From contig JBFMAF010000031.1 of NCBI GenBank assembly GCA_040755995.1, forward strand, positions 83,108-147,107: a DNA stretch of 64,000 bases. The letters run 5' to 3'. Under the pieces are notes generated by a model, which saw only the letters and a list, made by a program, of their open reading frames with translations, had not been told where the DNA came from and did not search any database. The translations under genes and the position numbers were made by a program. The stretch comes from Acidobacteriota bacterium (GTDB lineage: Bacteria > Acidobacteriota > CAIWXX01). The number at the start of each line of letters is the position of its first letter. Position 1 is the stretch's first letter. This document shows positions 11,798-20,652 of the stretch, piece by piece.

Positions 11798-11840
11798 CGG
11801 CCTGCGGCGCACTCAGGCACACAGGTGCCGTTCGAGCGAC

Positions 11841-12053
11841 CTATGCGCTCCGGGAGACCTTTGGCGAGCCGGTCTCCATCTGCAGCCGCGCTTCTGCTTC
11901 CGTGCTCGCCGAAGCAAAGGACACCTTCCGTTGCGGGTTCTTCTGCTCGGCCTGCTTGAGGGCTTCGCACATCGCAGCGATTTCGAATCGGTACTTCGCG
12001 GCAAACGCTTGGCGCGCACGCCGCGTCTCCTCAACGATCTCGTCGTCCCACAT
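11841..12053 (-). CDS. Small hypothetical protein, usual downstream partner of this PIN family
   Basis: MWDDEIVEETRRARQAFAAKYRFEI pattern; 3 nt after the PIN gene's stop. Confidence 0.75.
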   Translation of the reverse strand: MWDDEIVEETRRARQAFAAKYRFEIAAMCEALKQAEQKNPQRKVSFASASTEAEARLQMETGSPKVSRSA

Positions 12054-12056
12054 TTC

Positions 12057-12530
12057 TCACTCCTCCAGGAGCTCCTCCGGCGTGCAAATGACCGGAGGCC
12101 CGTATCCATGCCGGCGGCACGCTTCAACGATCCGCTGGCGACTGACGGCATTGGCAATATGCTTGAGATTCCAGGTGATGAGATAGTCGACGCCGTGAAC
12201 AGCAGCTATCGCTACATGGATGGCTTCCGCCGCGAATTCAGATGGGATAGTGTGATCGTCGACCAGGGCCTGCGCGAGAGTGACGACATCGGATGTAGTC
12301 TCCAGCATTGGGACCTGTTCGATGAGCTTGGCCCTCTCGCTCGCAGCCTGTTGGTCCCCATCGCGCGCCTCCTCCACCACGAGTTGAGAAATGAGCAGGT
12401 CATGGTGCTCTCGACGGCTATCCCACCATTCGTTCGTGATCCGCTGATGGGCTGCGACTAGCAGGTCACGGCTGGGCCGGGCCGCCCGGTAGCTTATCAC
12501 AGTGGTTTCAATGTAGGCTTTGGGTTTCAT
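12057..12530 (-). CDS. PIN-domain (VapC-like) protein
   Basis: YIETTVISY, SQLVVEE, EAIHVAIA, DYLITWNLKHIAN, ICTPEEL; extended -10 (TGaTATACT) 8 nt before the ATG, so probably leaderless. Confidence 0.9.
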   Translation of the reverse strand: MKPKAYIETTVISYRAARPSRDLLVAAHQRITNEWWDSRREHHDLLISQLVVEEARDGDQQAASERAKLIEQVPMLETTSDVVTLAQALVDDHTIPSEFAAEAIHVAIAAVHGVDYLITWNLKHIANAVSRQRIVEACRRHGYGPPVICTPEELLEE

Positions 12531-12663: not shown

Positions 12664-15600
12664 CTACGGGCCGGCGTGTCTTTTCAGCGGCAGCGGCCGG
12701 GCGGCGTCGGTGACGGCGTCGATCTTCACCGCATAGCTCGTCTTCTGCGCGATGTCTTCATCCCTGACGATGTGAATGTCGAGGAGGCCGCCGGTGCGGT
12801 ACCCTGTTCTGATGTGGTTCATCTCGTCGAGGCAGAGACTCCACCCGTCGAACCAGATCGTGAGCTCGCGCAGCTGCTGTTCGGTTCCGCCGAAGTGGAC
12901 GAGCAGATCTATGTCGCTCTGCGGGCCCGCCGTCGCGTTCTTGGTGCTCCCGATCAGATACAGCCCCTTGACGCCGAAGCGCTCGGGATCGAGCTGGGAG
13001 GCGATGTGTTCCGCCATCTTGAGGCGCCACGCCCAGAAGTTTTCCGGCTGCCTGTCCGCGTTCTCTCTCAGGGTCGCGGGGCTTTCGAGGCGCGACGGCT
13101 CGCGGACGAGGTATCCGACTGCCTCATCGAGATCCGCGTTCATGAGCACGCGCAGCAGATGACCCTCCGAGCTCTTCGGTACATCGATCACCTTGACAAC
13201 CTGCGCGAGGTGAGCGAACTCGGGGAGGAGCTCCGGCAGCACGTTGGTTGCACGCTGGAAGAACGCGTCGTTGAAGACGACTCCAGTGTCATCCGGGTAG
13301 AGCGGCAGGTAGCGAATCCGGGCCTCGACCAGGTCCTGGAAGAAGTGCGTGCCGAAGGACAGATCCGGAATGTAGTTGCCCTTCTGGCGCGCCACCTCGA
13401 TCAGGATCGCCGTGTTCGTGATGTCGGCGTAGGAGACCTTGACGCCGAGCTTGATGTCGCCACGGCTGCCCCATCTGCCCGGACCCATCAGGATGAAACG
13501 GCGGCTCGGAAGCAGCTTGTTGAGCTTGCCGATAGCCCGCGCGACTGAAAGCAGGTCGGCCCGGTCGGCCAGTTGATCGTAGCTCTGGGGGTCGACATAG
13601 ACAATGTGACTGATATCGGGAATACGCCCATTCGAAACGTACCGGCTCGCGGTGAATACGATCTTCTCCTTCGGGATGTCGTGAGGGATCGGCGCCGGCG
13701 CGGAATCCTCGAGGTAGCTCTGGGGGCGGCATTGCAAGAGGTAAAAGGCGCTTCCGTCGGAAGCGAATTCGATGTCCACGGGCGTCCCAAGCTGCTTCTC
13801 GAGCAGCTCCAGAAGTGCCTTGATCTTGGCCACGAACGGGGTTCCGGTGACAAGTCCTTCGAATGTCACCACCAGGTCTTCATTCTCGAAATCGATACCT
13901 GTCGGAAGAGGCTTGCGCATGTGGTAGCCGTCGAAGACGGATACGATCTTGTCGACCGCCGGGTACTTCTCACCATACCTTCTCAGCAGATCCCTGACTT
14001 CGATAGTCTCGAACCGGTTGGTTCTGAGATTGATCACGTCGATTCTCTTCGGAGCGTAACGCGCGACCTCATCGGGAGTCACATTGACCCGGAAGCCTAT
14101 CTGTCCGGGGGCGAGCAACACCGGGAAGTCATCGCTCACTCTGTCGACCGCCCTGGTGCCCAACCCCGGGACGAGTCTCAGGAGCCCGTCCTGCTGGCGG
14201 ATTCGAGGGGACCACCGGAACTCGTTTCGGCTGAAGGCGACGCCGGCGTAGGCAGGCATGAAGTAATCGCCGATGCGCGAGCCGACGACTTCCTGAACCA
14301 TGATCCCCATCTCTTCGGCGAAATCGACGAGTCCGCGTTCGTGCCTGTAGCTGATCGGGTCGGGGCCGAACGTGGACGCGTAGACCTCCGCGATGGCGTC
14401 GATCAGCGCATCGAGCCGTTCCTGTTTGCTCCCCTGGTTCGCCAGGAAGAGACTCTTGTATTTCCCCGAGAAGGACGACCCCATGCGGTCCTCGAGCAGA
14501 CTGGAGCTCCGTACGATGAGAGGCAGATCCTTGAACTCGTCGAGGACCATGGAGAGCCCCTGGACCAGCTCGGTGGGCAGCGGACTGTTCTTGAATGACT
14601 GCACGATGTGCGGATACTCCAGCCGCACCTGGTGGATGTCCTTGTACTTCTGCTCGACCACCTCATTCAGGTTGTTGTAGGTGAGGAAATTGAGCAGCTC
14701 GTCGGTGGCGATGTACCATGTCCGCGGCACCTTGATGTCCGCCAGGTGCGAATGCTCGCCGGAGGCACTCTCGACGACCCGCTGCGCCAGGAACAGGCCG
14801 CTCCCCTTGCCCCCAAGCCTGCCCTGGCTCTCCGGCGAGAAGACCAGGTGATTGAGGATCTCGTAGAAATCCTCGATCTCGATGAACTCCTTCGCCGTTC
14901 GCAGATACTGGGGCTGGCTCGACAGAAACCGCCGGATCAGCGACACCTGGACCCCCCGCCTGCTCGGCGGCGGAAGCTCCACACCCTCCGATGCGATGAG
15001 ACGATAGCGCCGCAGTGCCTCGATGATGCGGACCAGAGGGAGGTTCTTGTTAATGACCTGGACGAGGAAGCTCAGCCGGTCTTCCTGTATCCAGCTCTGT
15101 ATGTTGGAAAGTATCTGCTCCTCGGAAAGATGCTTCGCCGCGATGCGGAAAACCTCGTCGCTCAGCCTCTCCGTGAACGGCTGCGGGCTTTTCTGGTACG
15201 GCCGGTTGTCTTCCAACACAAGGCTCTCGTCGCGTGGGCCGGAGCCCGACGTGGACCTCTGCAGCAGCGTCTCGGCCTCCTCGGTCCCGCTCCAGCAGAG
15301 GAAGTTCAGCATGCGCCGGGATATGTTGAGGAAGAGGTTGCGGTCCGTCTGGCGCAACAGGTTCAGCGCTACACGCCACTCTTCGATTCTATGCTCCGCG
15401 ACTCCGCTCCTCGCCGTCTGGAACACATGCTTCATGCGGTGGTACATGATGTAGTGGCCGAGCCGGTCCGCGATGGTATTCAGAAGCTTGGTTTCTTCCT
15501 TCAGGAACGGCCCGTGGTCGGCCTTCGGCATCTCTCTGGTGTAGTACACGCTTATTCGACCGACGGCCTTCTCCTGCAGCGTGACATCCGCGTATTGGAC

Positions 15601-15843
15601 CCACGGCGTTTCCTGGAAGCCCGGGGATGCGTGCGAGTACTCCTCGATTTCGACTCTGGCCACACAGACGTCAGGGTACTGCCATCCGGGTGGAATCGCA
15701 TCTACTGTGCCGGCGCAGATCTCACCGAAGTCGGCGTCGGGTTTGCTGAGGAGCTCCTCGATCCTGTACAGACAGTTGAGCTCCTTGGCCCTCTCCGAGA
15801 GGAACCAGATCAGCTCCTTTGTCGTCTTCTCCTGGCTAGTCAT
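12664..15843 (-). CDS. Multidomain protein: GAF-like N-terminus + PPDK/PEP-synthase nucleotide-binding (ATP-grasp) domain + His-containing domain + Pol-beta-type nucleotidyltransferase
   Basis: ERAKELNCLY...IPPGWQYP; GGKGSGL, VRSSSLLED, FSGKYKS, VQEVVG, PGLG, DIEFA, LLQCRP; GPGRWGS, SFGTHFF; LIGSTKNATAGPQSDIDLLV...LDIH. Start MTSQEK at 15843 overlaps the upstream stop. Confidence 0.9.
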   Translation of the reverse strand: MTSQEKTTKELIWFLSERAKELNCLYRIEELLSKPDADFGEICAGTVDAIPPGWQYPDVCVARVEIEEYSHASPGFQETPWVQYADVTLQEKAVGRISVYYTREMPKADHGPFLKEETKLLNTIADRLGHYIMYHRMKHVFQTARSGVAEHRIEEWRVALNLLRQTDRNLFLNISRRMLNFLCWSGTEEAETLLQRSTSGSGPRDESLVLEDNRPYQKSPQPFTERLSDEVFRIAAKHLSEEQILSNIQSWIQEDRLSFLVQVINKNLPLVRIIEALRRYRLIASEGVELPPPSRRGVQVSLIRRFLSSQPQYLRTAKEFIEIEDFYEILNHLVFSPESQGRLGGKGSGLFLAQRVVESASGEHSHLADIKVPRTWYIATDELLNFLTYNNLNEVVEQKYKDIHQVRLEYPHIVQSFKNSPLPTELVQGLSMVLDEFKDLPLIVRSSSLLEDRMGSSFSGKYKSLFLANQGSKQERLDALIDAIAEVYASTFGPDPISYRHERGLVDFAEEMGIMVQEVVGSRIGDYFMPAYAGVAFSRNEFRWSPRIRQQDGLLRLVPGLGTRAVDRVSDDFPVLLAPGQIGFRVNVTPDEVARYAPKRIDVINLRTNRFETIEVRDLLRRYGEKYPAVDKIVSVFDGYHMRKPLPTGIDFENEDLVVTFEGLVTGTPFVAKIKALLELLEKQLGTPVDIEFASDGSAFYLLQCRPQSYLEDSAPAPIPHDIPKEKIVFTASRYVSNGRIPDISHIVYVDPQSYDQLADRADLLSVARAIGKLNKLLPSRRFILMGPGRWGSRGDIKLGVKVSYADITNTAILIEVARQKGNYIPDLSFGTHFFQDLVEARIRYLPLYPDDTGVVFNDAFFQRATNVLPELLPEFAHLAQVVKVIDVPKSSEGHLLRVLMNADLDEAVGYLVREPSRLESPATLRENADRQPENFWAWRLKMAEHIASQLDPERFGVKGLYLIGSTKNATAGPQSDIDLLVHFGGTEQQLRELTIWFDGWSLCLDEMNHIRTGYRTGGLLDIHIVRDEDIAQKTSYAVKIDAVTDAARPLPLKRHAGP

Positions 15844-17596
15844 GGGTGATGACTCCAAATCCTCTCCGCCCGTCGACCCGCACTTCCAGCGGCGACGGCA
15901 AGCGCACATGGCATGTCCATCCAGTCTCCTCCACAACCTCTTGCCGGCGCAGCCATTCCCAATCGATCCGGTATTGGCCCTCATGCGGAACGGAGAAATA
16001 CAGGACCTGGAAGCTGGTGATATTGTGGAAGAAATGCGAGCCCTGGCTGAGCAGGAAGTTCATCTGCGGCAGCATCGACTCGACTATCACCTTGGCTCCC
16101 GAGATCTGTCCGAAATTGACCGGTATCCCGGCCGACGGGTCGGAGGTCCCCCAGCGCCCGAAACCGATGAGTACGTACGGCGCGCGTGCCGAGATGAGTC
16201 GTCGATTCATGACCTCCAGCTCTTCGGCTATCTCGTGGGTCGCTCCCGGTACGAACGACTCCGGTTTCACGTAGATGACGTCGCGGATGGTGTCGATCCT
16301 GCCGTTTCCCATCGCAGACTGTGATGCGACCAGCGCGCGGCTTCCCGAGAGCTCGTCCGCCGTCACGTCCACTGTGCCCTGCGACACCACCATCGGGCGG
16401 ACCTGGAGGAATCCGAACCTGGCCGGCGTCCCGCGGTCGTTGTCCAGCGTCACCGCGAACTCGATCTCGACCATGCTGCCGAGGGTTTCTCCGCAGGAGC
16501 GCAGGAGAGCCTTGAGCAGCTCGTTCAAGGGGATCTCATCCAGCTTCAGGATCGGCGCGAAGTTGACCAGCCTGGCGCCACGCTCGGCAATGCCGATCAC
16601 CAGCCGCTCGTCGTGCGGCCTGTAGGTCGACGCAATAAACGTCAAGCTCCCATCCTGCTCGGCATCATCGAGATGATACCTCATCATGTACTCGACTTCC
16701 TTGACGGGATCGTACACGGGGGGCGGGCCCATGTTGATCCCCCAGAAGTCCCTCTGGCTCTGCTCGAGAAGTTCGTCCAGGGTGTTGTACGGAGGGTTCG
16801 ACTGCGGGTAGGCGGGGGAGTACGTCCACGCCGTCCCGTCGTCAACGATCATCTTGCCGAGGCCCAGCGCAAGGTCGATGACCCCGTCTTCCGGCTTCGC
16901 GTGCCCGAGCGGGTAGAAGTTGTAGCTCCGCGCGACCCCGGAGATGTGCGGATAGAAGCGTTCCTCATGCCGGCACCCGACGACCTCCTGGACGATCACA
17001 GCCATCTTGTCGCCCGTATCTCCGTGCCTGGTCGCCTGTAGGTAGTTCCGGGCGCCTTTGAAGTACGTAGACGCGTACACGTACTTGACCGCCTCTATCA
17101 ACCGGCGGAAACGAATATCCGTGTCGTGCTGGTTGTTCGGGATCATCTTGGTCTTGTAGACGCTTGCGAAGGGCTCGAACATGGCGTCTTCGAGCATGCT
17201 GGATGAGCGGACCGCGAGCGGAGTGTGGACCTGCGCGATCAGAGCGCGGAGATCACCAACTAGCTGCGCGGGAAGGGCGGCTCTCTGGAATGCGAGCGCC
17301 TTCTGGTCGTCGCGCAGATCCGAGCCCGCAACATCGAAGAGATCGTTTTGCTTCATGAAGAGATCGAAGAAATCGGTGCCGATGACCGTGAGGGTAGGGA
17401 TGTTGACGATCATCCGAGGCTCGAACAGCGGCGCGATTCGCTTCTCCAACAGATCCTTCATCCTCGCCAGCCCCTGCGCCTTGCCCCCGATCGAACCGCC
17501 GCCGATGCGCGTGAACCTCTCCCGCCCAGTGAAGAACTGCCGATCAAAGGCCTGAAGCGTAGGGCTCTGACTGACGATTCTATTTCCGCCGTTCAT
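15836..17596 (-). CDS. PPDK/PEP-synthase N-terminal (ATP-grasp) domain protein lacking the PEP/pyruvate-binding barrel
   Basis: IGGKAQGL, AVRSSSMLED, VQEVVG, GVARS, LGLG, EIEFA, LQVRP; GFGRWGTSD, SQGSHFFHN. Confidence 0.9.
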   Translation of the reverse strand: MNGGNRIVSQSPTLQAFDRQFFTGRERFTRIGGGSIGGKAQGLARMKDLLEKRIAPLFEPRMIVNIPTLTVIGTDFFDLFMKQNDLFDVAGSDLRDDQKALAFQRAALPAQLVGDLRALIAQVHTPLAVRSSSMLEDAMFEPFASVYKTKMIPNNQHDTDIRFRRLIEAVKYVYASTYFKGARNYLQATRHGDTGDKMAVIVQEVVGCRHEERFYPHISGVARSYNFYPLGHAKPEDGVIDLALGLGKMIVDDGTAWTYSPAYPQSNPPYNTLDELLEQSQRDFWGINMGPPPVYDPVKEVEYMMRYHLDDAEQDGSLTFIASTYRPHDERLVIGIAERGARLVNFAPILKLDEIPLNELLKALLRSCGETLGSMVEIEFAVTLDNDRGTPARFGFLQVRPMVVSQGTVDVTADELSGSRALVASQSAMGNGRIDTIRDVIYVKPESFVPGATHEIAEELEVMNRRLISARAPYVLIGFGRWGTSDPSAGIPVNFGQISGAKVIVESMLPQMNFLLSQGSHFFHNITSFQVLYFSVPHEGQYRIDWEWLRRQEVVEETGWTCHVRLPSPLEVRVDGRRGFGVITHD

Positions 17597-17638
17597 GGTG
17601 AATCGTCCGACTCCGCTTCGGACTCTCCTGGAAAACCC

Positions 17639-17736
17639 CCGTCAGTTCGCATGTCTGATTCCGCACTCCGCACTCCGCATTCGGCAAGCCACCGTCAGGT
17701 CGCAGGTCTGATTCCGCACTCCGCATTCCGCATTCG
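17639..17736. repeat. Two 45-bp direct repeats (period 53) containing TCCGCA(C/T) heptamers
   Basis: CCGTCAG(T/G)TCGCA(T/G)GTCTGATTCCGCACTCCGCA(C/T)TCCGCATTCG at 17639-17683 and 17692-17736, 3 mismatches. Confidence 0.9.
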
Positions 17737-17738
17737 CC

Positions 17739-19025
17739 TCACACCCACCCTCGCTCGCGACATGCCTGGGCGACACGGGAAACGGCGATAACATTGGCTG
17801 CGTCCCGCATGTACAGGCCCTTCTTCTTTGCCAGCTCACGGACCGCATGAAAGGCCGACGTTATCTTCAGATCGAGCTTGCCGAACACTTCATCCTGTTC
17901 CCAGAAGTAGTTCGCGTTGCCCTGCACCTGCTCGAAGTAGCTGCAGATGACGCCGCCGGAATTGGCGAGGATGTCCGGGATCAGGAACAGACCCCGATCG
18001 TGGATGACTCGATCGGCCTCGGGAGTAGTCGGGCCGTTGGCCCCCTCGATGATCAACTTCACCCTGCTGGACATGCGTCCCACGTTGTCAGCGGTGATCT
18101 GCTGCTCGATGGCCGCAGGAATGAGAATGTCGGCGTCCTGTTCGATCCATTGCTCCCCCGCCAGCACTTCGTAGCCCAGACCAGCCGCTTTCGCCCTGTC
18201 GATGCCGCCGAAGCGGTCGGTGATACCGGCCAGCTCGTCGTAGTCGATTCCTTCGGGCTTCCGGAACGCGTATGAGGTCTGGTCGCTCTGGTCCCAGCAA
18301 GAAACGCAGACCACCTTGCCCCCGATCTGCTGGTAGAGACGAACGGCGTGCTGGGCGACGTGACCGAATCCCTGAACGCTAGCCGCCGTCGACTCGGGGG
18401 CAAGGCCGAGCTCCTTGAGGGCCTCGCGCGCGGCGAAGACGACGCCGAAGCCAGCGGCTTCGCGCCGCCCCTGCGACCCGCCGAGGCTCACGGGCTTACC
18501 CGTGATGAATCCGGGGCGCTTCTCGCCCTGAATCGTCTCGAACTCGTCGAGCATCCACAGCATGTACTGGGGACTGGTCATGAGATCTGGTGCCGCGACG
18601 TCGATGGAAGGGCCCAGATCCCTTGAAAGGCGACGCACCCATCCCCGGCAGACCCGCTCCTGCTCCCACAGCGACAGGTTATGCGGGTCGCAAACGACAC
18701 CGCCATTGCTGCCGCCCAAAGGAATGTCCACCAGCGCACATTCCCAGGTCATCCACATGGCCATGGCCCGGACGGTGTCGAGGGTCTCCTGCGGGTGGAA
18801 TCGGATACCGCCCTTGGCGGGGCCCCTTGAGTCGTTGTGGACAACGCGAAATCCCCTGAAGATTCGTGGGCGGCCGTCGTCCATGCGCACCGGGATCGTG
18901 AACTGGTGCTCTCGCACGGGAGTGCGGAGCATCTCGCGGGTCACCTCATCTAGTCCAAGCAAGTCCAGCGTCTTGTCGAGCTGCGATTGGGCCATGTCAA
19001 ATGGCGTGGATGTCCTGGCGGCCAT
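17739..19025 (-). CDS. Glu/Leu/Phe/Val dehydrogenase homologue with substituted active-site lysines (probable pseudoenzyme)
   Basis: GPAKGGIRFHP, ITGKP..LGGS.GR, VQGFG, EGANGPTT, IPDILANSGGV..SYFE present; MTWKC is MTWEC and GGGKGG is GGSNGG. Confidence 0.9.
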   Translation of the reverse strand: MAARTSTPFDMAQSQLDKTLDLLGLDEVTREMLRTPVREHQFTIPVRMDDGRPRIFRGFRVVHNDSRGPAKGGIRFHPQETLDTVRAMAMWMTWECALVDIPLGGSNGGVVCDPHNLSLWEQERVCRGWVRRLSRDLGPSIDVAAPDLMTSPQYMLWMLDEFETIQGEKRPGFITGKPVSLGGSQGRREAAGFGVVFAAREALKELGLAPESTAASVQGFGHVAQHAVRLYQQIGGKVVCVSCWDQSDQTSYAFRKPEGIDYDELAGITDRFGGIDRAKAAGLGYEVLAGEQWIEQDADILIPAAIEQQITADNVGRMSSRVKLIIEGANGPTTPEADRVIHDRGLFLIPDILANSGGVICSYFEQVQGNANYFWEQDEVFGKLDLKITSAFHAVRELAKKKGLYMRDAANVIAVSRVAQACRERGWV

Positions 19026-19095
19026 TCGTATTTTCCTTTCAAAGAATCTCGCGGGCGATCGACCGCTTTCGCGAACACGACCTGTCGTGTTCCAG

Positions 19096-19124
19096 ACGAT
19101 AGCGCCAGCCCCTGCAATTGTCAA
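19096..19124 (-). promoter_or_regulatory. Sigma70 promoter for the pseudo-GDH/PPDK-like operon
   Basis: Minus strand TTGACA-17-TATCGT, about 70 nt upstream of ATG 19025. Confidence 0.7.
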
Positions 19125-19290
19125 AGAAAAGATGGCCTCGGGAGTCTTGGTTTTTTATCAGAAGCCAAACGAAAACCAAATAATTTCCAAACAAAACTCG
19201 CGTATGTATGCGGATTGTCCTTATGAAGGGGCTTGCGCGCGTAGTGATTCGATCCACATTCCTCATTTACAAATCCTAAGGAGTGATTGC

Positions 19291-20652
19291 ATGAACAGTT
19301 TCGTCTCCGATTTCATGGCCGCGGTGAAAGCCAAGAACCCGGCCGAACCCGAGTTCCACCAGGCTGTATTCGAAGTCGTCAGCTCAGTGGCACTCGTGAT
19401 CGAGAAGAACCCCGAGTACCGCAAGGCGAAGATCATGGAACGCATCGCCGAGCCGGAGCGCGTGATCATGTTCCGCGTTCCCTGGATGGACGACGCCGGC
19501 GAGATCCATGTCAACCGTGGCTACCGCATCGAAATGAGCAGCGCCATCGGGCCGTACAAGGGCGGGCTGCGCTTCCACCCGACAGTGACGTTGGGCATCC
19601 TGAAGTTCCTGGCATACGAGCAGGTCTTCAAGAACAGCCTGACGGGACTCCCGATGGGTGGCGGAAAAGGAGGCTGCGATTTTGACCCTAAGGGCAAGAG
19701 CGACTACGAAGTGATGCGCCTCTGCCAGAGCTTCATGAATGAGCTCTTCAGACACATCGGGCCCGATACGGACGTGCCCGCGGGAGACATCGGCGTGGGA
19801 GGGCGAGAGATAGGGTACCTGTTCGGCCAGTACAAGAAGCTCCGCAACGAGTTCACCGGCGTCCTCACCGGCAAGGGCCTGGATTGGGGCGGCTCGCTAA
19901 TCCGCCCGGAAGCCACAGGCTACGGCGCCACCTACTTCGCAGCAGAGATGCTCGGCACGCGAAACCAGACTCTGCAGGGCAAGACCTGCCTCGTGTCCGG
20001 AAGCGGCAACGTCGCCCAATACACGGTCGAGAAGATCAACCAGCTCGGCGGAAGAGCTGTGACACTCTCTGATTCGAACGGCTATATCTACGATCCGGAG
20101 GGAATCGACGCCAAGAAGCTCGAGTTCGTCATGGATCTCAAGAACATCCGGCGCGGCAGAATCAAGGAGTATACCGACAAGTACAAGAGCGCCACGTTCA
20201 TCCCGCTGAAGCCGGGCCTGGACTACAACCCGCTCTGGGACCACAAGGCGGACTGTGCCTTCCCCAGCGCGACGCAGAACGAGATCAACGGGAAGGACGC
20301 CGAACACCTGGTCAAGAACGGCGTCTACGTCGTCGCCGAAGGCGCCAACATGCCGACGACACCTGAGGGCATCGAGGTTTTCCTGAATGCCAAGATCCTC
20401 TACGGGCCGGGCAAGGCCGCCAACGCCGGCGGTGTAGCCACCTCCGGTCTCGAAATGTCCCAGAACAGCCTGCGCCTGAGCTGGACTCGCGAAGAGGTTG
20501 ACAGCCGGTTGCACCAGATAATGAAGAACATCCACAAGACCTGTGTGGAGGCCGCCGCCGCCTATGGCACGCCAGGCAACTACGTCAACGGGGCCAACAT
20601 CGGTGGGTTCCTCAAGGTCGCCAGGGCCATGATGGACCAGGGCCTCGTCTAG
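19291..20652 (+). CDS. gdhA: NADP-specific-type glutamate dehydrogenase
   Basis: EPEFHQAV, GPYKGGLRFHP, EQVFKNSLT, MGGGKGG, DVPAGDIGVG, RPEATGYG, GSGNVA, EGANMP, KAANAGGV; AAGGAG RBS. True start is 19291, not 18562. Confidence 0.97.
   Translation: MNSFVSDFMAAVKAKNPAEPEFHQAVFEVVSSVALVIEKNPEYRKAKIMERIAEPERVIMFRVPWMDDAGEIHVNRGYRIEMSSAIGPYKGGLRFHPTVTLGILKFLAYEQVFKNSLTGLPMGGGKGGCDFDPKGKSDYEVMRLCQSFMNELFRHIGPDTDVPAGDIGVGGREIGYLFGQYKKLRNEFTGVLTGKGLDWGGSLIRPEATGYGATYFAAEMLGTRNQTLQGKTCLVSGSGNVAQYTVEKINQLGGRAVTLSDSNGYIYDPEGIDAKKLEFVMDLKNIRRGRIKEYTDKYKSATFIPLKPGLDYNPLWDHKADCAFPSATQNEINGKDAEHLVKNGVYVVAEGANMPTTPEGIEVFLNAKILYGPGKAANAGGVATSGLEMSQNSLRLSWTREEVDSRLHQIMKNIHKTCVEAAAAYGTPGNYVNGANIGGFLKVARAMMDQGLV

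Follow-up and report, generated by a model that had tools for sequence, protein, structure and literature searches.

A Lys-less glutamate dehydrogenase and two truncated dikinases as a likely control switch of glutamate dehydrogenase in many bacterial phyla

Introduction

Glutamate dehydrogenase (GDH) joins carbon and nitrogen metabolism, and nitrogen assimilation is controlled by GlnD and GlnE, which are Pol-beta nucleotidyltransferases. To our knowledge, no dedicated covalent control system has been established for bacterial GDH, unlike for glutamine synthetase. We here analyze a 64,000-nucleotide stretch of the genome of an Acidobacteriota bacterium (the window; coordinates are positions of this stretch). 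It carries a gene for a GDH homolog without the catalytic lysine (Lys-less GDH) followed by genes for two proteins resembling truncated dikinases, A and B, and this operon is divergent from an intact gdhA. The set of Lys-less GDH, A and B genes is likely to be an undescribed control switch of a central nitrogen-metabolism enzyme, distributed across many phyla.

VadK (Rv1127c) of Mycobacterium tuberculosis has no phosphoenolpyruvate (PEP) domain. It phosphorylates itself on His422, and enzymes of the methylcitrate cycle that are encoded near it co-purify with it; its description does not mention GDH (PMC13400623). Like VadK, A and B consist of an ATP-grasp and a His domain without an acceptor barrel, and are tied to an enzyme of central metabolism. 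Unlike VadK, which is a direct descendant of pyruvate phosphate dikinase (PPDK), they score nearer to the models of PEP synthase and rifampin phosphotransferase (RPH). They also differ from VadK in a His module of about 200 residues with the motif SxG(T/S)HFF that is missed by PF00391, in their pairing, in their sensor and nucleotidyltransferase domains and in the linkage to GDH. With PEP synthase, PPDK and RPH they share PF01326 with its ATP-binding residues and, by a weak prediction, perhaps a swivel-type His domain. Those enzymes combine PF01326 with PF00391, with or without PF02896, whereas A and B have neither the barrel nor the rifampin-binding insert.

AcvAB is described as a split dikinase with a phosphatase, AcvF (10.1101/2022.04.28.489975). 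A and B resemble AcvAB, phenylphosphate synthase and CreHI as multi-subunit PPDK_N/His phosphotransferases with a phosphatase gene in the cluster; in those split enzymes, however, one chain carries the ATP domain, another the His domain, and a phenol accepts the phosphate, whereas A and B each carry both domains and have GDH as a neighbor. Thermus thermophilus GdhA is an inactive regulatory subunit (as summarized in PMC9570180). Judged by that summary, the Lys-less GDH is similar in being an inactive GDH homolog that is under selection and encoded near an active GDH; unlike Thermus GdhA, it belongs to a dikinase-linked clade, shares only 31% identity with the adjacent GdhA and is encoded in the same orientation as kinase-like genes. 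As with GlnD and GlnE, the Pol-beta nucleotidyltransferase of B is encoded next to a gene for nitrogen assimilation and has a putative eraser, but its nucleotidyltransferase domain is small and single, the eraser candidate is a calcineurin-like phosphoesterase of a separate, usually convergent gene, and both are optional. Overall, the system would join the action of VadK to that of an inactive GDH subunit of the Thermus type, yet the tests made here place it in neither group.

Gene Organization

Gene order, sizes and strands of B, A, the Lys-less GDH and the divergent gdhA agree with an earlier, sequence-only reading of this DNA. The genes, and the domains of B, are as follows.

12664-15843, minus strand: gene for protein B, 1059 residues, with PF01326 and PF01909
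15836-17596, minus strand: gene for protein A, 586 residues, with PF01326 at residues 35-407 and a His module with SQGSHFF (His521 codon at 16034-16036)
17739-19025, minus strand: Lys-less GDH gene, 428 residues
19291-20652, plus strand: gdhA, intact NADP-type GDH, 453 residues, divergent from the operon
15424-15822, minus strand: B residues 8-140, mobile sensor-type domain
Within 12664-15843, minus strand: B residues 140-335, conserved region without assigned function
13678-14820, minus strand: B residues 342-722, ATP-grasp, with Lys346, Arg445, Glu692, Gln704 and Arg706
13090-13707, minus strand: B residues 713-918, His module with SFGTHFF (His833 codon at 13345-13347), a predicted enlarged swivelling beta/beta/alpha domain
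12667-13056, minus strand: B residues 930-1059, Pol-beta-type nucleotidyltransferase with intact Gly965-Ser966, Asp977, Asp979 and Asp1022

All four reading frames are full length, and those of A and B share 8 nucleotides (ATGACTAG).

Architecture of Proteins A and B

Both proteins match PF01326 (E values of 3e-31 for A and 2.7e-59 for B), and B matches PF01909 with 27.5 bits against a cut-off of 21. The PEP-utilizer barrel family matches neither, and neither chain has room for the barrel. Scores against the PEP synthase, PPDK and RPH models of NCBIfam are at most 63 bits, far below cut-offs of 456-1700, and B reaches only 15.5 bits with the PPDK model. These results bear out the sequence-only reading, which had denied a PEP synthase architecture to both proteins and had seen an ATP-grasp plus His module in each; the residues of both parts are intact. 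The Lys, Arg, Glu, Gln and Arg of the ATP-grasp and His833 are invariant in all 76 aligned B proteins, and among 105 proteins of the A type and the receiver-fused C type the ATP-grasp residues are kept in 102-105 and A His521 in 103. The roles of these residues in ATP binding are assumed from PPDK. The His module also carries invariant Arg and Glu residues. Four A-B fusion proteins occur among the 150 representatives listed, and these natural fusions suggest that A and B act together.

In a predicted model of the His module of B (predicted local distance difference test score 91, predicted template modelling score 0.90), His833 starts a helix, as does the phospho-His of PPDK and enzyme I. With VIA-align, the module gives Z scores of only 3.5-5.3, a match at fold level and not a superposition of His833 on a catalytic His. 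The matched structures include enzyme I of the phosphotransferase system (Z 5.0), the RPH His domain (residues 756-867, Z 5.0), the pyruvate kinase swivel (Z 4.8) and the PPDK carrier (Z 4.8), and we take many of them to be swivelling beta/beta/alpha folds; the swivel domains are matched at Z scores of 4.3-5.0. We read the result as a weak prediction of a swivel domain that is enlarged and divergent. Its profile gave one chance-level match only against PDB sequences, and the ESM Atlas returned unnamed or automatically named clusters only; for B residues 140-335 the Atlas scores were at most 0.80.

The N-terminal domain of B (residues 8-140) had been labeled GAF. It has no match in Pfam or among PDB sequences, and GAF is at most a putative label for this mobile sensor-type domain, which recurs in a hybrid histidine kinase of the same genome and four times in the family member P0118. 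P0118 and P0121 are family members of about 1550 residues with three or four tandem sensor-type domains before a receiver-like region and the core.

Linkage to gdh and the Partner GDH

Linkage to gdh was surveyed in GTDB genomes, where 593 relatives of B were confirmed; the best 80 of these span Acidobacteriota, Bacillota, Planctomycetota, Ignavibacteriota, Calditrichota and candidate phyla. Ten loci were excluded as too short or without a scorable B; in 69 of the remaining 70, a GDH gene is located within 3.5 kb upstream of B, as is an A gene in 57 of the 70. In genome samples not chosen by B similarity, gdh is within 4 kb in 16/19 loci of the window's own phylum (four more are at contig ends) and in 12/14 loci of the phylum of genome G053 (one is at a contig end). 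Among named Bacteroidales records, two of three have gdh within 4 kb of a family member. The survey that the sequence-only reading had proposed thus gives conserved linkage.

The GDH encoded in these operons belongs to one clade, 31% identical to GdhA and marked by an SCWDQ insertion. The motif is readable in 67 operon GDHs, of which 57 retain the catalytic Lys and 10 have lost it. Among 41 genomes surveyed in the window's phylum, nine encode a GDH with this insertion, each together with a B-type gene; the other 32 are without a GDH of this clade, and a divergent B-type gene occurs in two of them and no B-type gene in 30 (the insertion was checked on the best hits of 14 genomes, hits of the remaining genomes being less than 46% identical; one of the 30, G035, is unpublished). 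A perfect 11/11 pairing of B with the GDH clade was discarded, as it rested on a 50% identity cut and two of those GDHs are without the clade insertion. GdhA orthologs often have a partner of another kind. In genomes with an intact operon GDH, a receiver-fused paralog of about 1000 residues adjoins GdhA in 7/9 regions fetched, and it is also found beside GdhA in Parabacteroides distasonis and Phocaeicola massiliensis. Each GDH type thus tends, by gene neighborhood, to have its own partner protein. As the operon GDH is usually intact, its clade tracks B and GdhA often has its own receiver-fused paralog, the default partner of B would be the operon GDH and not GdhA, which had been proposed as the target.

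This genome encodes only three His-module proteins, namely A, B and a B-like protein of 917 residues on another contig, C41. There (G000:C41:88844-93090; L081:6836-11091), an intact operon-clade GDH gene is followed by the B-like gene, which is without the nucleotidyltransferase, and A is absent. No C- or D-type paralog for the window's GdhA is present in this genome. A fourth, very divergent paralog of about 555 residues, 22-24% identical to A and with the motif TQGTHF, occurs at L001:14406-16073 and in L002, L003, L008 and L089; together with a partner of 481 residues that has no Pfam family, it adjoins GdhA in the genomes nearest to the window's cassette. In Parabacteroides distasonis (L159:4423-13715), gdhA is divergent from the receiver-fused paralog and a second gdh points towards the cluster, the genes between being annotated as endonuclease/exonuclease/phosphatase, nucleotidyltransferase and RapZ.

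The Lys-less GDH

GdhA of the window scores 741.7 bits with NF006929, the NADP-GDH model (cut-off 536), and all catalytic residues are present, including Lys90, Lys114, Lys126 and Asp166. The roles of GDH residues are taken here from Clostridium symbiosum GDH. In the Lys-less GDH, Asn107 replaces the catalytic Lys (GGSNGG) and Glu95 replaces the second substrate Lys (TWEC), such that the product of 17739-19025 is without the pair of GGxKGG catalytic Lys and substrate-binding Lys of an active GDH. Relative to intact clade members, the changes are K107N, K95E, T191A and N222H; Lys71, Asp147, Arg187, Ser362 and the clade-specific SCWDQ insertion are retained. Its sequence identity is 31% with the adjacent GdhA and 63% with the intact paralog on contig C41.

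The Lys-less GDH is not a pseudogene and is under purifying selection. It keeps 171 of 191 near-invariant GDH sites, and in comparison with five relatives the nonsynonymous divergence (dN) is 0.21-0.24, far below the synonymous divergence (dS), which ranges from 1.1 to saturated. The pseudo-GDH of the sequence-only reading is therefore non-catalytic but conserved. Constraint is relaxed at this gene, with identities of 0.68-0.75 compared with 0.80 for intact pairs at equal B distance.

An intact second GDH is encoded in the same locus in 9/10 Lys-less cases (GdhA in eight of them), compared with 3/57 Lys-intact cases. In a quick tree of 40 rows with the Lys column masked, in which 30 intact rows were sampled and L072 was left out for its very long branch, the 10 Lys-less GDHs form one branch (SH-aLRT 95.8), and the tree does not require the Lys to have been lost more than once in the operon clade. 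Genomes of several phyla still carry Lys-less copies. Of the 10 Lys-less genomes, seven have another GDH of 55-64% identity, which keeps the Lys in every case. Loss of the Lys as a consequence of owning GdhA was rejected because all nine tested genomes with a Lys-intact operon GDH have GdhA elsewhere. As A and B are equally conserved in Lys-less loci as elsewhere, and so have not decayed even where their GDH lost catalysis, as would be expected of proteins that do no more than adjust the catalysis of this GDH, the Lys-less protein most likely serves as a sensor or adaptor. A candidate docking or modification site is the following insertion, whose Tyr252 is retained in only 4/11 Lys-less copies, the window's included.

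18270-18302, minus strand: SCWDQxDxxSY insertion in the second GDH domain, specific to the operon GDH clade and absent from other GDHs

At L110:4583-5923, a GdhA-clade GDH that has lost the Lys (GGAQGG) is encoded directly 5' of a receiver-fused C-type paralog; its origin is separate from that of the operon-clade Lys-less copies. At L097:17993-20000, two tandem GDH-like genes with GGSMGG lie a few kilobases from a full cassette, and the first is also without both substrate lysines.

The Nucleotidyltransferase and a Phosphoesterase

Of the 76 aligned B proteins, 8 have no nucleotidyltransferase domain and one has a degenerate one; in the window, the GS, DxD and D residues are intact. It has no match to GlnE or GlnD families, only to PF01909 and PF18765 and weakly to MntA. 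Among 119 loci, a calcineurin-like metallophosphoesterase (PF00149; for example at L001:11176-12111) is the only specific conserved neighbor and is mostly convergent with B. It is present in 49/70 nucleotidyltransferase-bearing loci with at least 1.5 kb of room (two of the loci, L051 and L095, are apparently the same) and in 0/12 loci without an intact nucleotidyltransferase (11 of the B type and one with an unrelated nucleotidyltransferase). It also flanks two stand-alone copies of the nucleotidyltransferase domain (L113:6793-8530; L114:6226-7797), in genomes whose B lacks that domain. The pair looks like an optional writer/eraser layer, and GlnE-like nucleotidylation as the core of the system, in the sense of the sequence-only reading, is not supported. 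In this genome, which is 99.84% complete, the phosphoesterase was not found by tblastn, by genome search or with a profile of 53 sequences. Neither the nucleotidyltransferase nor the phosphoesterase gave a significant match among PDB sequences. An anti-phage role was dropped because PADLOC and PHROGs gave only generic nucleotidyltransferase and phosphoesterase matches.

Proposed Mechanism and Alternatives

We give about an even chance to the proposal that A and B are truncated dikinases that probably autophosphorylate on His and probably control GDH, the Lys-less GDH being a docking or ligand-sensing subunit and not an enzyme. ATP would drive phosphorylation of the A and B histidines, as in PPDK and VadK, with A and B operating as a pair. 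The output would be GDH activity, changed by phosphotransfer or by binding that depends on the phospho-state. The Lys-less subunit would relay this control to an active GDH, either the 63%-identical paralog on C41, in a mixed hexamer, or the adjacent GdhA. The nucleotidyltransferase would be an added layer, normally paired with the metallophosphoesterase as writer and eraser.

Several results weigh against this proposal. Of the 33 evaluable loci from the samples of two phyla, five lack a gdh at a distance of up to 4 kb, and the linkage counts are not independent trials because related genomes and co-transferred cassettes are among them. The adjacency of the Lys-less copy to an intact GDH in 9/10 cases may likewise be a single event spread by transfer, as these copies form one branch. 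An intact clade-mate was not found in 3/10 Lys-less genomes, which counts against the mixed hexamer. No member of its near clade is more eroded than the window's copy (171 sites kept compared with 177-178 of 191), and its genome is without the paralog of about 555 residues and the phosphoesterase of its closest relatives. The swivel match of the His module is weak: the best Z score, 5.3, is to a DRTGG domain, and by the tool's own warning a Z below 8 may reflect a common arrangement; Foldseek matched nothing at E<=0.001, profile comparison by hhalign with 22 swivel domains gave a probability below 1% with a shallow template, and PF00391 matches neither A nor B.

The best-surviving alternative, which we consider unlikely, takes GDH as the input: active or Lys-less GDH would sense glutamate, 2-oxoglutarate or NAD(H) and gate a non-canonical His kinase, and the phosphate would go to receiver domains or another target. 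GDH can lose catalysis with A and B still conserved, paralogs are fused to receiver domains, the N-terminal domain of B is shared with a hybrid histidine kinase, and in L110 a GdhA-clade GDH lost its Lys separately, directly 5' of a C-type gene. However, no downstream regulator is conserved among the neighbors of the 119 loci, where the phosphoesterase alone is specific, and each GDH clade keeps its own paralog, as dedicated regulators would.

A shade less probable is a metabolic complex in which A and B phosphorylate a small molecule bound by the GDH-like subunit (glutamate, 2-oxoglutarate or a nucleotide) and the phosphoesterase removes the phosphate. The models would be split dikinases such as AcvAB and phenylphosphate synthase; small molecules are the substrates of split PPDK_N/His enzymes that have a phosphatase as partner (10.1101/2022.04.28.489975). 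A and B have no acceptor domain of their own, and the His module has invariant Arg and Glu residues besides the His, but the neighborhood contains no other conserved gene for metabolism or transport, the sensor and receiver fusions point to signaling, and the window's GDH has lost two substrate lysines.

It is improbable that, as the sequence-only reading proposed, the nucleotidyltransferase is the core and covalently modifies the adjacent GdhA as GlnE does glutamine synthetase. Its intact residues and the presence of the phosphoesterase with intact nucleotidyltransferases, including the stand-alone domains, speak for it; GdhA is the neighbor in 8/10 Lys-less loci, and here has no C- or D-type paralog of its own. 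Against this stand the 9/76 B proteins in which the domain is absent or degenerate, the majority of B loci, which have no gdhA nearby, the phosphoesterase family not found by the searches of this nearly complete genome, and the small Pol-beta type without GlnE or GlnD family match.

A last reading, highly improbable, takes the cassette of the window for a slowly decaying, redundant duplicate and the intact GDH and B-like gene on C41 for the working copy. The active-site losses, the lost phosphoesterase and the relaxed constraint speak for it; four full-length frames, a dN far below dS and the persistence of Lys-less copies across several phyla speak against it.

Other Features of the Locus

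The control proposal outlined above concerns proteins; the intergenic DNA of the operon contains the following elements.

19124-19096, minus strand: sigma70-like site TTGACA-17-TATCGT, 71 nucleotides 5' of the Lys-less GDH start, a consensus match only
19152-19188, strand unassigned: AT-rich intergenic element, with similar sequence in the divergent loci L001, L002 and L008
17639-17736, minus strand: two 45-nucleotide direct repeats of GCGGA(A/G)T heptamers, copies 93% identical

The sigma70 promoter ahead of the pseudo-GDH, as first read from the sequence, is present as such a consensus match. Five sigma70-like sites were found compared with 2.3 +/- 1.3 in shuffled sequence, and this site hence carries little weight alone; two of four aligned related intergenic regions (L001 and L002) have a TTGAC(A/T)-17-TATTTT counterpart, and a third has TTGACA. 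The AT-rich element may be a gdhA promoter or operator. Runs of the GCGGA(A/G)T heptamer occur 49 times genome-wide, densely at 360-393 kb of contig C32, and are thus dispersed and not specific to the system. At 11813-12530 (minus strand), where relatives carry the phosphoesterase, an open reading frame of 157 residues is followed by a short downstream one. The former has no Pfam match and only a weak match to phrog_11007, and the two resemble what we take to be a PIN-type toxin-antitoxin pair.

Biological Significance

The system is real, widely conserved and apparently undescribed; no description of the A/B family was found in literature searches, which missed most subscription journals. The family is very large: among 7996 scored, E<=1e-100 is reached by 5309 relatives of the receiver-fused type, and 801 clusters reach E<=1e-30 to A. 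It adjoins gdh in gut Bacteroidales. In Bacteroides thetaiotaomicron, trans-acting gene(s) downstream of gdhA affect GDH activity, according to the title of Baggio and Morrison (1996; cited in PMC4539542). The A/B family is an obvious candidate for these gene(s), and the question is directly testable, as deletion and enzyme assays are routine in gut Bacteroidales. The segment studied there was reportedly 3 kb, the size of a C-type gene.

Lys-less loci offer a natural experiment that separates a sensing or docking role of GDH from catalysis. A bolder generalization, possible and put forward only tentatively, is that the family represents a pan-bacterial, undescribed class of ATP-grasp histidine kinases with a dedicated kinase for each GDH clade. 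GDH would double as the sensor, the Lys-less GDH would be an adaptor re-targeting the kinase/nucleotidyltransferase pair to another GDH, and the trans-acting factor of 1996 could be a member. If true, this would provide GDH with a counterpart of the GlnD/GlnE cascade.

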